Of a DNA stretch of 36,915 nucleotides, positions 19,038-36,915 are shown piece by piece. Location: UHGV virus genome UHGV-0071814. One strand, written 5' to 3'. The position numbers and the translations under genes are program-made. The DNA is from a virus. A model generated the notes under the pieces. That model saw nothing but the letters and a program-made list of their open reading frames with translations. It had not been told where the DNA came from and did not search any database. The stretch's first letter is position 1. Every line of letters starts with the position of its first letter.

Positions 19038-19113
19038 TGGTGCTGGTTAACGGACTTGAACCGCTACCCATTCGCTTACAAGGCGACTGCTCTACCATTG
19101 GAGCTAAACCAGC
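19038..19113 (-). tRNA. tRNA, probably Thr (anticodon UGU)
   Basis: Manual fold: 7-bp acceptor stem, D arm GCTC/GAGC, anticodon loop CUUGUAA, T arm with GGTTCAAGTCC, 3' CCA. Confidence 0.6.
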
Positions 19114-19118
19114 ATATT

Positions 19119-19193
19119 TGGCGGGACAGCGTGGACTCGAACCACGATAAGAAGGTTAACAGCCTTCCGTAATGACCTTTATACGACTGACCC
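19119..19193 (-). tRNA. tRNA, probably Asn (anticodon GUU); one T-T mismatch in acceptor stem
   Basis: Manual fold: anticodon stem GAAGG/CCTTC, loop CUGUUAA, T arm GGTTCGAGTCC, 3' CCA. Confidence 0.55.
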
Positions 19194-26729: not shown

Positions 26730-27008
26730 TCAGGCCTCGAAGAATTCGCCGTTCTTCGGGGCTTTTTCTTTTGTCAGCATTCTTGCTACTTTCTTAGCCA
26801 GTTTCGCCAACTCCTCGTCTTCAACACCCCATTCAAGAACAGCAAGAAGCATTCCCATTTTGGGGATGAAGCTGTCTTTCCATCGCGAAATTTGCGATTC
26901 ATTAATCCCTAACGCGTCGGCAACCTTTCGCTGACCACGTACAGCAATTCGATTCAGGATGTTGCTTGTAATTGCATTCGCTTTCTTGCGAGTACTTGTA
27001 AGTTGCAT
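26730..27008 (-). CDS. cII: cII-type transcriptional activator
   Basis: ...GINESQISRWKDSFIPKMGMLLAVLEWGV... matches lambda cII/P22 c1 core as recalled. Confidence 0.8.
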   Translation of the reverse strand: MQLTSTRKKANAITSNILNRIAVRGQRKVADALGINESQISRWKDSFIPKMGMLLAVLEWGVEDEELAKLAKKVARMLTKEKAPKNGEFFEA

Positions 27009-27066
27009 ATGTAAGTATTTCCTTAACTAATAAGAAGTTATGCGCATCAACTTATGCGCGTTGTAT

Positions 27067-27111
27067 TCCCGCATTTCGGCGGGAATGAGGACCATGACTG
27101 TTAAAGAGCGG
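27067..27111 (-). promoter_or_regulatory. nutR: boxA (CGCTCTTTAAC) followed by boxB hairpin (CCCGC-CGAAAT-GCGGG)
   Basis: Same boxA and boxB sequences occur at nutL (28740-28779) on the plus strand. Confidence 0.65.
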
Positions 27112-27116
27112 TGTTA

Positions 27117-27317
27117 CTATTTGTTTTTCTTGTTGCTTGGGAAAGGACGAACTTCCTCTCCAATCACACTGCCATCAGGCTTTACCGTAACCATAATGTT
27201 ACGGCCTGCCAGAATGGCCTTGCTGATAGCGCACTGGATTACACCAAAGTCACTGGCTGCTTTAGCCTGTCCATGGATTTTGGCGTAATCGGCAAGTGTC
27301 ATTCGAATCATATGCAC
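27117..27317 (-). CDS. cro: Cro repressor
   Basis: 66 aa; ...[37 protein letters not shown] resembles lambda Cro; divergent from cI. Confidence 0.8.
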
Positions 27318-27342
27318 TCTCCGTTATTAACCATGAACAAAG

Positions 27343-27406
27343 AATACTACAGGTATTCAAAGCAATCAATACTCAGGGTATTTTTAGTTTAAGTACCTTA
27401 GCTATT
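27343..27406. promoter_or_regulatory. OR operator region: three 15-bp sites with AATAC-N5-GTATT symmetry (27343-27357, 27368-27382, weaker 27392-27406), overlapping PR/PRM
   Basis: Palindromic half-sites read directly; centre spacing about 25 and 24 bp. Confidence 0.6.
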
Positions 27407-27417
27407 AGAATTAAGCT

Positions 27418-28134
27418 ATGGAAAATAAAAAATCACTGACGACAGAACAGCTCGAAGACGCTAAGCGGCTTAAGGCTTTGTATGAGTCAAAAAAGAAAGA
27501 ATTGGGAATAACCCAATACTCAATCGCTGATGAACTGGGTATCACCCAAGGAGCGGTAGGGCATTATCTTAATGGCAGAAACGCGCTAAACGTTGAGGTT
27601 GCATCTGGTTTTGCACGATTGTTGCAAGTCTCAATTGCTGATTTTAGCCAGTCAATTGCTGCCAAGGTTGCAGAACAGGCAGAAAGCCTTAAGAGCGATG
27701 CCAACGTAAGGTATGCAGGGGAATACAGAGCAGGAAAGAGGTATCCGGTGTTAAGCAGTATCCAGGCTGGCTCGTGGTGTGAAGCATGCGAACCATACAC
27801 CATTAAAGACATAGATGTTTGGCTTGAGTCTGACGCGCATATTCAAGGTAATGCGTTCTGGCTTAAAGTGGAAGGTGATTCAATGACGGCACCGGTTGGG
27901 TTAAGCATTCCAGAGGGAACATTCGTTCTTTTCGATACCGGAAGGGAGGCGATCAACGGCAGCTTGGTCATAGCAAAACTTTCTGACTCTAACGAAGCAA
28001 CATTCAAGAAGCTGATAATCGACGGCGGAAATAAATACCTCAAGGGACTTAATCCTGCATGGCCTCTCGTGCCAATCAATGGAAACTGCAAGATTATAGG
28101 CGTTGCAATTGAGACAAAACTAAGGCTGGTTTGA
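27418..28134 (+). CDS. cI: CI-type prophage repressor (HTH N-terminal domain + S24 LexA-like peptidase domain)
   Basis: 238 aa; LTTEQLEDAKRLKALYESKKKELG..., FWLKVEGDSMTAP...; homologous to lambda cI as recalled. Confidence 0.9.
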   Translation: MENKKSLTTEQLEDAKRLKALYESKKKELGITQYSIADELGITQGAVGHYLNGRNALNVEVASGFARLLQVSIADFSQSIAAKVAEQAESLKSDANVRYAGEYRAGKRYPVLSSIQAGSWCEACEPYTIKDIDVWLESDAHIQGNAFWLKVEGDSMTAPVGLSIPEGTFVLFDTGREAINGSLVIAKLSDSNEATFKKLIIDGGNKYLKGLNPAWPLVPINGNCKIIGVAIETKLRLV

Positions 28135-28151
28135 TCACGCAAGGGGCGATT

Positions 28152-28520
28152 ATGGTTGGAACCGCTATAGCAAGCTTTTTGGGGATGTTGGCAATCTCAA
28201 CAATTTACGGCTTAGCGCATGCTTTTATTGCGAAATCTCTATCAGAAAAAATAAGCCAGGCTTGGGCGCATAGATCTGCTCGTTTCATGATTCTGGTGAT
28301 CATAGCAATACAAGGGATATCTGCATTTATCCTCTATGGATCAAGCTTATACCTGTTGTATCAAGGCGCGACATTTACGCCTTACACCAGTGATTACGGA
28401 ACTCTATACGATGGTAGTGAAGACATCTCTATGGCTTGGATCGTCTTTGGTTTATCTATGGCCGTGTCTGTTGTAGCAGACATCATTAAGGTAATTCTCG
28501 TCTTAACCTTCGCTGACTAA
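28152..28520 (+). CDS. Small multi-pass membrane protein directly downstream of cI (rex-position cargo)
   Basis: ATG at 28152 with AAGGGG upstream; about 122 aa with three or four hydrophobic segments; ORF-track start 28131 is TTG. Confidence 0.55.
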   Translation: MVGTAIASFLGMLAISTIYGLAHAFIAKSLSEKISQAWAHRSARFMILVIIAIQGISAFILYGSSLYLLYQGATFTPYTSDYGTLYDGSEDISMAWIVFGLSMAVSVVADIIKVILVLTFAD

Positions 28521-28606
28521 CCTATAATCCCGGCAGCAATAGCTATCGGGATCCACTTCACATATCCCGCATAAAAAGCACTGAACAAGCAGACACCGAA
28601 AAAATA

Positions 28607-28691
28607 AATATCCTTTGTATTCATTTGCTTATCATTATTTCACCCAAAATAAATACCTTGGGTATTTACACAATAAAATACCTACAGTATT
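28607..28691. promoter_or_regulatory. OL operator region/PL: three sites with the same AATAC-N5-GTATT symmetry (28607-28621, 28652-28666, 28677-28691); candidate PL -35 TTTACA / -10 TATTCT
   Basis: Motifs identical in half-sites to OR sites. Confidence 0.55.
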
Positions 28692-28739
28692 CTTTAGCCA
28701 TCAGCAGGACGCTGGTAGCCAAACGGAACAGATTGGCAG

Positions 28740-28779
28740 GCTCTTTAACATTGATGGGATTGTCCCGCCGAAATGCGGG
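28740..28779 (+). promoter_or_regulatory. nutL: boxA GCTCTTTAA and boxB hairpin CCCGC-CGAAAT-GCGGG
   Basis: Exact counterpart of nutR elements; about 110 bp upstream of N. Confidence 0.65.
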
Positions 28780-28887
28780 AACCAAAGAGTAGTTGGCTTT
28801 GGGGTGACGTGAAGTGCAGCTGCACGACGGCAACCGGAAGATAAGCACCCGGCGCGTCACCGCCAAAGTCAATCATCGGAGGTCAAC

Positions 28888-29193
28888 ATGACAGTAGTCA
28901 TTACATATCTGGCTGATGATAACGCCAGAAATCGCCGCAGAGCACGCAGACAGGCTCAACGTGAACAGGCAATGCAAGAGCAGCGACTGGCACGAAAAAT
29001 TGCGCTAAAGCTCTCTGGTTGCGTCAGAGCAGATAAAGCAGCATCACTCGGAAGCCTTCGCTGCAAGAAGGCAGAAGAAGTCGAGCGTAAACAGAACCGT
29101 ATTTACTACCGCAAGCCACGCAGTGAAATGGGTGTGACTTGTTCAGGCCGCCAGAAGCAACGCGGAAAATCAATTCCAGCTTATTACGATTGA
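28888..29193 (+). CDS. N: Antitermination protein N
   Basis: Arg-rich motif NARNRRRARRQAQREQ near N-terminus; C-terminus ...YRKPRSEMGVTCSGRQKQRGKSIP like lambda N; AGGAGG RBS. Confidence 0.8.
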   Translation: MTVVITYLADDNARNRRRARRQAQREQAMQEQRLARKIALKLSGCVRADKAASLGSLRCKKAEEVERKQNRIYYRKPRSEMGVTCSGRQKQRGKSIPAYYD

Positions 29194-29968: not shown

Positions 29969-29994
29969 GCCCTCCAGTGTGAGGGCCTTTTTAT
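29969..29994 (+). terminator. Intrinsic terminator (GCCCTC-CAGTGT-GAGGGC + CTTTTTAT)
   Basis: Read directly; a second weaker hairpin plus T-run at about 30013-30035. Confidence 0.5.
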
Positions 29995-30058
29995 ATGCAT
30001 ACCAATAACGCTTCACTCGAGGCGTTTTCGTTATGCATTCAAACAGAAGGAGCATCCT

Positions 30059-35390: not shown

Positions 35391-35810
35391 ATGAGGCCTG
35401 TACATTTCTCAAGATATCCAGACCTACCGCAATCATGTCAATCCAATAAATGGAGATTCCAGGTGGAAGAAGAAATCTTCACTCGTGAAGAAGCTGCGTC
35501 GTATCTGAAGGTAGACAAAGGCACTATCACACAGTGGATACGAAGTGGACGACTTCAGGCCGCAAAGATAAATCCAGATAAACCTAAAAGTCCATATCGC
35601 ATTTGCAAGTCAGACTGCATTGTGGCGCTTAAGTCTGTGAGACACAATAGCGCGGTGAATGCGGTTGATGTGCAGGAGGTTAAAGCATGTCAATCAAACT
35701 ACGCGGTGGCACGTGGCACTGCGATTTCGTCGCGCCAGATGGATCAAGAGTTAGACGCTCTCTTGAAACATCGGACAAAAGGCAAGCGCAAGAACTTCAC
35801 GATCGTCTAA
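35391..35810 (+). CDS. xis: Excisionase-like DNA-binding protein; start uncertain (ATG 35391 or GTG 35461); overlaps int by about 124 bp
   Basis: HTH-like segment FTREEAASYLKVDKGTITQWIRSGRLQAAKI; immediately upstream of int. Confidence 0.55.
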   Translation: MRPVHFSRYPDLPQSCQSNKWRFQVEEEIFTREEAASYLKVDKGTITQWIRSGRLQAAKINPDKPKSPYRICKSDCIVALKSVRHNSAVNAVDVQEVKACQSNYAVARGTAISSRQMDQELDALLKHRTKGKRKNFTIV

Positions 35811-36847
35811 AAGCAGAAGCGTGGAGAGTAAAAAATCTCGGGGAATCACCGAAAAAGCTATTCAAGGAAGCCTGCATACGGTGGCTGCGTGAGAAATCGG
35901 ATAAGAAGTCCATTGATGATGACAAGAGCATTATATCGTTCTGGATGTTGCACTTCAGAGAAACCATTCTCTCAGACATAACAACAGAAAAAATAATGGA
36001 GGCGGTAGACGGGATGGAAAACCGCCGCCATCGCCTGAACTGGGAAATGAGCCGGGACAGGTGTTTGCGGCTTGGCAAGCCAGTGCCGGGGGATAAACCA
36101 ACGTTGGAAAGCAAAGGAACGAAGACGCGGCATCTGGCAATACTTCGCGCTATTCTCAATATGGCTGTTGAATGGGGATGGCTTGACAGGGCGCCCAAAA
36201 TATCAACACCACGCGTTAAGAATGGACGAATCAGATGGCTTACAGAGGAGGAATCGAAGCGCCTGTTTGCAGAAATTGCTCCTCATTTCTTCCCTGTGGT
36301 CATGTTTGCAATCACGACAGGCCTTCGCCGTTCCAACGTTACAGACCTTGAGTGGTCACAGGTCGATCTGGATAAGAAAATGGCATGGATGCACCCTGAT
36401 GAAACAAAAGCTGGCAATGCGATCGGAGTTCCTCTTAACGAAACCGCATGCCAGATATTAAGAAAACAGCAGGGTCTCCATAAGAGATGGGTGTTTGTCC
36501 ACACCAAACCTGCCTACCGAAGCGACGGAACAAAAACAGCAGCGGTAAGGAAGATGAGAACCGACAGCAACAAGGCATGGAAGGGAGCGTTAAAGCGGGC
36601 AGGCATTAGCAACTTCCGCTTCCATGACCTGAGGCATACCTGGGCAAGCTGGCTGATTCAGTCCGGTGTCTCTCTTCTTGCACTTAAAGAGATGGGAGGA
36701 TGGGAAACTCTCGAAATGGTTCAAAGATACGCCCACCTTTCAGCCGGGCATCTCACCGAGCACGCGAGCAAAATCGATGCGATTATAAGTCGCAATGACA
36801 CAAATACGGCACAAGAGGAGAACGTAGTTTACTTAAATGTGAGATAA
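35687..36847 (+). CDS. int: Tyrosine-type site-specific integrase
   Basis: 386 aa; catalytic motifs ...FRFHDLRHTWAS... and ...VQRYAHL...; AGGAGG RBS; adjacent to tRNA. Confidence 0.9.
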   Translation: MSIKLRGGTWHCDFVAPDGSRVRRSLETSDKRQAQELHDRLKAEAWRVKNLGESPKKLFKEACIRWLREKSDKKSIDDDKSIISFWMLHFRETILSDITTEKIMEAVDGMENRRHRLNWEMSRDRCLRLGKPVPGDKPTLESKGTKTRHLAILRAILNMAVEWGWLDRAPKISTPRVKNGRIRWLTEEESKRLFAEIAPHFFPVVMFAITTGLRRSNVTDLEWSQVDLDKKMAWMHPDETKAGNAIGVPLNETACQILRKQQGLHKRWVFVHTKPAYRSDGTKTAAVRKMRTDSNKAWKGALKRAGISNFRFHDLRHTWASWLIQSGVSLLALKEMGGWETLEMVQRYAHLSAGHLTEHASKIDAIISRNDTNTAQEENVVYLNVR

Positions 36848-36861
36848 CTTATTGATTTTAA

Positions 36862-36915
36862 TGGTGCCGATAATAGGAGTCGAACCTACGACCTTCGCAT
36901 TACGAATGCGCTGCT
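36862..36915 (-). tRNA. thrW: tRNA-Thr (anticodon CGU), 3' portion only; prophage attachment site
   Basis: Minus strand ...AGCGCATTCGTAATGCGAAGGTCGTAGGTTCGACTCCTATTATCGGCACCA; anticodon loop and T arm through CCA match E. coli thrW as recalled; truncated by window end. Confidence 0.8.

Follow-up and report, generated by a model that had tools for sequence, protein, structure and literature searches.

Layout of the early-control region

The DNA analyzed here, referred to as the window, is a stretch of 36,915 nucleotides from the virus genome UHGV-0071814. Part of it is laid out as a canonical lambdoid immunity region, which runs in the opposite direction to the conventional lambda map. On the plus strand, cI is followed by a gene for a small membrane protein, PL, the site designated nutL, a long leader hairpin and N. 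On the minus strand, PR is followed by cro, the site designated nutR, a further hairpin and cII. Most of the remainder of the window is occupied by a P22-like (Lederbergvirus) virion module, and an integrase gene adjoins a partial tRNA at the right end, which marks the window as an integrated prophage.

The repressor gene cI (27418-28134, plus strand) lies between the two nut sites; its product has HTH and S24 peptidase domains, and its position agrees with the cI annotation of phage HK620. The PL promoter (28665-28693, plus strand), located by a promoter scan and by mapping of HK620 pL and OL1-3, consists of TTTACA and TATTCT with a 17 nt spacer and overlaps the OL operators; its transcript is predicted to start near 28700. 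PR (27341-27369, minus strand) was read from the sequence and from the mapping of HK620 pR and OR1-3, and consists of TTGATT, a 17 nt spacer and TATTCT overlapping the OR operators. The PL/OL region is an inverted repeat of the PR/OR region. The cro gene (27117-27311, minus strand) is recognized by Pfam Cro (E = 3.6e-26) and by the HK620 cro annotation. Directly after nutR, folding reveals a putative tR1 hairpin, GCGCAU-AAGUUG-AUGCGC (27042-27059, minus strand), followed by a moderately U-rich tract and coinciding with the tR1 annotation of HK620. The first gene past nutR and tR1 is cII (26730-27008, minus strand; Pfam Phage_CII, E = 2.2e-42).

On the other side, the part of the N leader that separates boxB from the ribosome-binding site of N folds into a long stable stem-loop (28792-28875, plus strand), and the leader as a whole (28700-28890) folds at -69.8 kcal/mol with z = -2.8. 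Any role of this stem-loop is suggested by the lambda N leader. Downstream of N in the PL operon, a terminator scan picked out two intrinsic-terminator-like hairpins (29969-30026, plus strand). These are consensus matches only, in a scan whose count of terminator-like sites downstream of N was not above shuffle expectation, and they stand as candidate targets of N antitermination. Rfam returned no match in the region at gathering thresholds and only meaningless hits (E > 0.6), none of them to a nut site, at permissive thresholds.

Two nut-like sites and an adjacent N gene

Across the whole window, the boxA sequence GCTCTTTAACA is present in exactly one copy per strand, and the hairpin UCCCGC-CGAAAU-GCGGGA is likewise a single copy on each strand. 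The boxA 11-mer GCTCTTTAAC(A) occupies 28740-28750 on the plus strand and 27099-27109 on the minus strand, two exact copies where dinucleotide-preserving shuffles predict 0.02; reduced to a 10-mer with one mismatch allowed, boxA alone is not significant, with 2 matches found in the window against 2.1 expected from shuffles. The boxB sequence CCCGC-CGAAAT-GCGGG stands at 28764-28779 on the plus strand, and its reverse complement at 27068-27083 is read on the minus strand, so that both copies have the same reading on the strand that carries boxA (2 found, 0.01 expected from shuffles). Identity between the two sites extends further still, to the 19 nt TCCCGCCGAAATGCGGGAA (28763-28781 and 27066-27084), for which zero are expected. 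These counts, together with the shared 19 nt, confirm the statement of the initial annotation that identical boxA and boxB elements occur once on each strand.

In nutL, the boxA GCUCUUUAACA (28740-28750, plus strand) is followed by the spacer UUGAUGGGAUUG (28751-28762), which resembles the phage 21 nutL spacer, and by the boxB hairpin (28763-28780), whose 6-bp stem of a U-A pair plus CCCGC/GCGGG presents the loop CGAAAU at 28769-28774. In nutR, the boxA CGCUCUUUAACA (27099-27110, minus strand) starts 7 nt past the last base of the cro stop codon, and the boxB hairpin (27065-27086, minus strand) has an 8-bp stem, AUUCCCGC/GCGGGAAU, with the same CGAAAU loop at 27078-27073. The element GCUCUUUAACA lies 12 nt upstream of the stem in nutL and 12-15 nt upstream in nutR. 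It conforms to the rrn-type CUUUA consensus and not to lambda's CUUA; the rrn and lambda boxA sequences and the consensus CGCUCUU(U)A have been documented, as has the role of an AUU-containing spacer in NusA binding (PMC2724277). The nutL spacer contains AUU if the last boxA base is included, and by analogy it may serve here as a NusA-binding element. Folding of both RNAs returned the hairpins as predicted, at -10.5 kcal/mol for nutL (z = -3.1) and -12.5 kcal/mol for nutR (z = -3.9).

Both sites therefore place a consensus boxA 5' of a hairpin on the transcribed strand, and the hairpin is a stem-loop with a conserved purine-rich loop, the GNRA-like three-dimensional fold of which is presumed. 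There are exactly two such sites, one on the PL transcript upstream of N and the other on the PR transcript between cro and tR1/cII. Their spacing from the promoters was described at the outset as the expected one, and it proves to be so: the distance from the PL start to nutL is 40 nt, and the nutR boxA comes just past the end of cro.

The N gene (28888-29193, plus strand) encodes an antiterminator of 101 aa with an arginine-rich N-terminus. Its existence had been asserted from the sequence and is upheld, as the reading frame is present, its ATG is preceded by GGAGG, and its product matches phrog_271, 'anti-termination protein N-like', with E = 2.4e-36. The arginine-rich motif, DNARNRRRARRQAQRE, spans residues 11-26. 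Within it, A13-R-N-R-R-R-A-R-R21 aligns with A3-Q-T-R-R-R-E-R-R11 of lambda and A13-K-S-R-Y-K-A-R-R21 of phage 21, so that A-x-N-RRR-x-RR here corresponds to A-x-T-RRR-x-RR in lambda. Toward the other end, residues 62-98 align with residues 74-109 of lambda N in the antitermination complex of PDB 6GOV (E = 2.6e-6), and residues 37-97 share 88.5% identity with phage 21 N. Over residues 1-30 there is no difference from the N proteins of HK620 and mEpX2, whose C-terminal parts are distinct. Judged from these alignments, N is a mosaic protein. The sites are thus accompanied by a cognate N that combines an N-terminal arginine-rich motif with a lambda-N-like C-terminal region. On its own, a protein of this kind is expected to be disordered. 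The Pfam N_peptide model scored N below its cut-off (19.1 vs 27.9 bits); PHROGs and a search of PDB sequences gave more information on this protein than Pfam did.

The nut sites are, in fact, already known. Over about 70 nt, both nut regions of the window are 100% identical to the nutL and nutR of HK620 and likewise to those of mEpX2. The HK620 record (AF335538), annotated in 2001, carries the features 'nutR; putative N-utilization rightward' and 'nutL; putative N-utilization leftward', which transfer to 27065-27110 and 28739-28780 of the window, respectively; the comparison with HK620 rests on this GenBank annotation. The pL, pR, OL1-3, OR1-3 and tR1 annotations of HK620 map onto the window in register, and the mEpX2 record also marks boxA elements. 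Identity to annotated nutL and nutR thus joins position, strand, boxA and boxB anatomy and an adjacent N in bearing out the initial designation of a matching nutL/nutR pair. The sites are very probably the nutL and nutR of a P22-like (Lederbergvirus) E. coli prophage that carries an HK620 immunity and early-control module.

That the sites and N are correctly identified yet have become inactive relics is conceivable for a window that represents an integrated prophage. This is very unlikely, however, given that N, cI, cro and cII are all intact reading frames and that HK620, HK630, mEpX2 and HF4s, all isolated as viable phages, have nut sites, promoters and operators that match those of the window completely or at about 98-99% identity. 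More broadly, the immunity regions of HK620, HK630, HK140, mEpX2, HF4s and several Stx phages match the 2.7 kb around the sites at 98-99% identity.

Pairing of N motif and boxB across phages

The association between N and boxB can be followed through 80 viral contigs that encode a relative of this N. The HK620-type motif (DNARNRRRARRQAQRE) is found in 70 of the 80 loci, and the boxB 16-mer occurs once per strand in 68 of these 70, the sequence of the remaining two breaking off upstream of N. The nut sites of the HK620-motif loci enclose seven unrelated immunity cassettes and are 1153-2862 nt apart. Five different cro ends are seen upstream of the nutR boxA, and the sequence is conserved from boxA onward.

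The phage 21 motif (GTAKSRYKARR) is found in 10 of the 80 loci, and there the phage 21 boxB with its CUAACC loop occupies both sites. The hairpins are CUCAAC-CUAACC-GUUGAG in nutL and UCACCU-CUAAC(C/A)-GGGUGA in nutR, and they match the phage 21 boxB in lambda imm21. In boxA and in the C-terminal part of N these loci agree with the HK620-motif loci, and their spacer is similar. Between the HK620-type and phage 21-type contigs, one motif is never combined with the boxB of the other type; in other words, boxB type co-varies with N motif type between phages. The motif and both boxB elements are therefore swapped jointly, as a matching set, on a shared backbone. Inheritance of nutR in the E. coli lineage is invariably coupled to that of the adjacent cII module, and part of the association between N and nutR could therefore reflect linkage instead of selection. 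Overall, the comparison with other phages supports the pairing of N with boxB as judged by their co-occurrence.

A diverged lineage was retrieved with a pattern of boxA plus CGAAAT at variable distance, followed by a second search with the variant stem. Its N carries the motif DNARNRRRAKRAAERE and has unrelated C-terminal parts, and its hairpins are UCUCCGC-CGAAAU-GCGGGGA in nutL and CUCCCAC-CGAAAU-GUCGGAG in nutR. Neither the CGAAAU loop nor the C-G pair that closes it has changed; a compensatory change has turned the second pair from G:C into A:U, and a C.C mismatch (once C.A) takes the place of the third stem pair. Pairing holds in 87.5% of cells over 23 distinct hairpins, and both sides have changed in four of the eight pairs; the inner four pairs are constrained by the search patterns, and only the outer pairs constitute an unbiased test of covariation. 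Sliding the stem register lowers pairing in the same 23 hairpins to 36-60%. The core of boxB is nearly invariant, leaving covariation within the inner four pairs thin.

Orientation provides a separate line of evidence. The first 200 related loci contain 302 core hairpins, and in all but one, which is truncated by a contig end, a boxA-like sequence lies no more than 45 nt upstream on the same strand. Such consistent placement argues for a strand-specific element that acts at the level of RNA. The alternative is that the inverted 19-mers act as DNA, either as a palindromic protein-binding site or as a recombination hotspot at the edges of the immunity module, with the RNA hairpin being incidental. 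Both copies do lie at mosaic junctions, since phages differ in the sequence that precedes the nutR boxA and in that which follows the nutL boxB, and one nutR copy has a nutL-type spacer that suggests exchange between nutL and nutR. Yet junctions are expected at nut sites in any case, as conserved functional sequence offers homology for recombination. A symmetric DNA site, moreover, needs no particular orientation, whereas the asymmetric loop here reads CGAAAU on the transcribed strand behind boxA throughout these hairpins with the single exception above, and the loop is constant across stems that have undergone compensatory change. The DNA-palindrome reading was rejected on strand specificity and loop conservation, and it must be regarded as extremely unlikely. 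Just as little credence can be given to the notion that the hairpins are other RNA elements (intrinsic terminators, RNase III sites or mRNA stabilizers) near boxA-like sequences by chance: they are indeed stable and GC-rich, and another hairpin and the annotated tR1 directly follow nutR, but the loop sequence, beyond the stem, is conserved across diverged stems, the hairpin type switches along with the N motif type, the terminator scan called neither hairpin, and neither is followed by a U-tract (the next bases are AACCAAAGAG and AAUACAACGC), which led to rejection of the terminator reading in particular.

The N-utilization sites identified in this prophage are by no means confined to it. Of 5426 complete E. 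coli genomes, 522 contain the nutL 61-mer and 501 the nutR 66-mer, which places the HK620-type pair in about 9% of them. No feature is annotated under the nut sites in any of the ten matches listed, out of about 500 matching genomes in all; in those ten, RefSeq annotation omits nut sites. A search of species-representative genomes with the 19-mer gave 16 hits, and the two-copy arrangement occurs only in Escherichia sp. E1V33 and in a 'Segatella copri' contig, the latter probably mis-binned. Tatumella punctata has a single copy, and the 13 other single copies, in unrelated genomes, are probably chance matches.

Loop recognition and comparison with known N-boxB systems

In the mechanism that these features suggest, the PL and PR transcripts would each carry boxA, a spacer of 12-16 nt and the boxB hairpin, in this order. 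Through the arginine-rich helix at its N-terminus, N would bind the boxB loop, NusB and NusE (S10) would bind the consensus boxA, and NusA would contact N as well as the spacer. The C-terminal part of N, like the RNA-polymerase-binding tail of lambda N, would keep the RNA loop on the elongating polymerase, which could then read through tR1 and the terminators of the PL operon. A search of the accessible literature found no biochemical or genetic test of this N/boxB type (binding, Nus-dependence or antitermination) and no structure or binding data for the HK620-type class, and this widespread class of motif and boxB appears not to have been characterized biochemically or structurally before.

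The boxB loop had been noted for having 6 nt instead of the 5 nt of lambda. The size is correct, but it marks no departure from lambdoid biology, given that phage 21 also has a hexaloop. In that CUAACC hexaloop, a non-canonical C-C pair flanks UAAC, which folds in a GNRA-like manner (PDB 1NYB; PMC12550061), and in the P22 boxB loop, GACAA, the extra C is looped out in the complex (PMC12550061). Rare variants of the present loop are CGCAAU (two loci) and AGGAAU (one locus). Because these few variants all keep the central G-N-R-A, the likeliest structure for the loop is that of a GAAA tetraloop seated on a C.U pair of non-canonical type, paralleling the phage 21 hexaloop.

It is tempting to go further and regard the HK620-type pair, with the motif DNARNRRRA(R/K)R and a boxB of the form C-[GNRA]-U, as a fourth class of N-boxB recognition. 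What N recognizes would then be a genuine GNRA tetraloop, formed in advance and stacked on a C.U mismatch; no loop base would be extruded, and there would be no cross-reaction with lambda, P22 or phage 21. This proposal is a tentative one, and we hold it to be possible but doubtful. If it were true, the extruded base of the lambda pentaloop would be absent and the assembly of NusA could differ. As a discovery, the sites matter little, as they confirm that the window has a standard lambdoid early-control region. They do offer a clean natural example of a matched swap, in which the RNA-binding motif of N and both boxB elements are replaced on an otherwise phage-21-like backbone. The HK620-type pair could also become an additional orthogonal peptide-RNA tethering pair alongside lambda N/boxB.

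Of the known systems, HK620 is the closest. The layout of pL, pR, operators, cI, cro and cII is the same at about 98% identity, and residues 1-64 of N are 98% identical. The two phages part ways within N itself, which here has 101 aa and a phage-21/lambda-like C-terminal third, whereas HK620 N has 90 aa and a P22/H-19B-like tail; the genes downstream of N differ as well.

From phage 21, by contrast, the backbone is shared and the recognition elements are not. The boxA GCUCUUUAACA is identical, the nutL spacers (AUUGAUGG against AUCGACGG) and nutR spacers (AGUCAUGGUCCU against AGUUCUGGCCUU) are similar, both loops have 6 nt with pyrimidines as first and last bases, and the close match over N residues 37-97 adds to this picture; in terms of sequence, the backbone of boxA, spacer and these N residues is phage-21-like. 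The loop, however, is CGAAAU and not CUAACC, and the motif is DNARNRRRARRQAQRE and not GTAKSRYKARRAELIAERR. The boxB is accordingly not of the phage 21 type, with which it has in common only the size of the hexaloop and its setting of boxA, spacer and N C-terminus.

Lambda follows the same logic of boxA, spacer and boxB, with N downstream of nutL and nutR just past cro (its nutR boxA begins 8 nt past the end of cro, versus 7 nt here). The motif core A-x-(T/N)-RRR-x-RR and a homologous C-terminal tail of N are common to both, as is a purine-rich loop beginning with G-A-A, which in lambda is the GNRA-like pentaloop GAAAA or GAAGA. The lambda boxA, CGCUCUUA, is one U shorter, and Trp18 of lambda N has no counterpart in the N described here. 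The lambda loop of 5 nt is closed by U-A and extrudes one base, whereas here C and U flank a G-A-A-A that contains no additional base.

P22, whose gp24 acts with a nutR boxB of CCGC-C-GACAA-C-GCGG, has in common with this P22-like prophage the stem core CCGC/GCGG, the pyrimidine flanks of the loop and the N-terminal leader MTV(V)ITY. It differs in its GACAA loop with the extra C and in its motif, NAKTRRHERRRKLAIER. The lambda and P22 types of boxB are both characterized by a GNRNA or GANAA pentaloop with one extruded base; the boxB of this prophage is set apart from them by a predicted 6-nt loop with a central G-A-A-A and no fifth inserted base.

The N gene and its leader

The antiterminator N (28888-29193, +) is a mosaic of three parts. 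Residues 1-36 are of the HK620 type, residues 37 to about 85 resemble phage 21, and the tail, SGRQKQRGKSIPAYYD, is nearer to that of lambda (SGRQKIKGKSIPLI) than to that of phage 21 (VGRQKIKLGSKPLI). Across 83 tallied loci, about 70 of which carry the HK620-type arginine-rich motif, 33 distinct C-terminal parts of N were found.

The leader of N holds a long and very stable stem-loop (28792-28875, +), downstream of the nutL boxB and upstream of the ribosome-binding site of N; folding of the RNA from 28700 to 28890 gave -69.8 kcal/mol with z = -2.8 for this region. In lambda, translation of N is controlled by a leader stem that is processed by RNase III; the stem-loop here has the position of that lambda stem.

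Features of the immunity region and elsewhere in the prophage

Directly 3' of the nutR boxB lies a hairpin, GCGCAU-AAGUUG-AUGCGC (27042-27059, -), followed by AUAACUUCUUAUU. The tR1 annotated in the HK620 record (AF335538) maps to this hairpin, a weak candidate for an intrinsic terminator, and a terminator scan did not call it.

The interval between cI and PL, which in lambda is the location of rexAB, is filled here by a gene for a small, apparently multi-pass membrane protein (28152-28520, +), corresponding to HK620 hkaS and belonging to a family of unknown function (phrog_6534). This hkaS-type gene is a candidate for an exclusion or defence function expressed in the lysogen.

An integrase of 386 residues (35687-36847) adjoins a partial tRNA gene (36865-36915, -) at the right end, presumably the attachment site. 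The prophage also carries genes for tRNA-Thr(TGT) and tRNA-Asn(GTT) at 19038-19193 (-).

Variation and possible exchange among nut sites

In one contig among the IMG/VR loci with related N, nutR contains the nutL version of the boxA-boxB spacer, ATTGATGGGATTGT, which suggests gene conversion between the two sites. In a diverged lineage of N and nut (contigs L092, L094, L095 and L207 and about 35 further IMG/VR loci), the boxB stem of nutR recurrently has a C.C mismatch, once C.A, at its third pair. Loop variants also occur: CGCAAU in the nutR of L095, and CGCAAU in nutR and AGGAAU in nutL of L207.

A 4.2-kb contig from a MAG assigned to 'Segatella copri' (L255, JAJXBQ010000254.1) has both copies of the HK620-type boxB, arranged as nutL and nutR; it is probably an Escherichia phage contig that was mis-binned.

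The nutR boxB of P22, CCGC-C-GACAA-C-GCGG (NC_002371, 2430-2490; locus L241), is nearly the HK620-type boxB with one looped-out C added. These two boxB types may be immediate neighbours in evolution.
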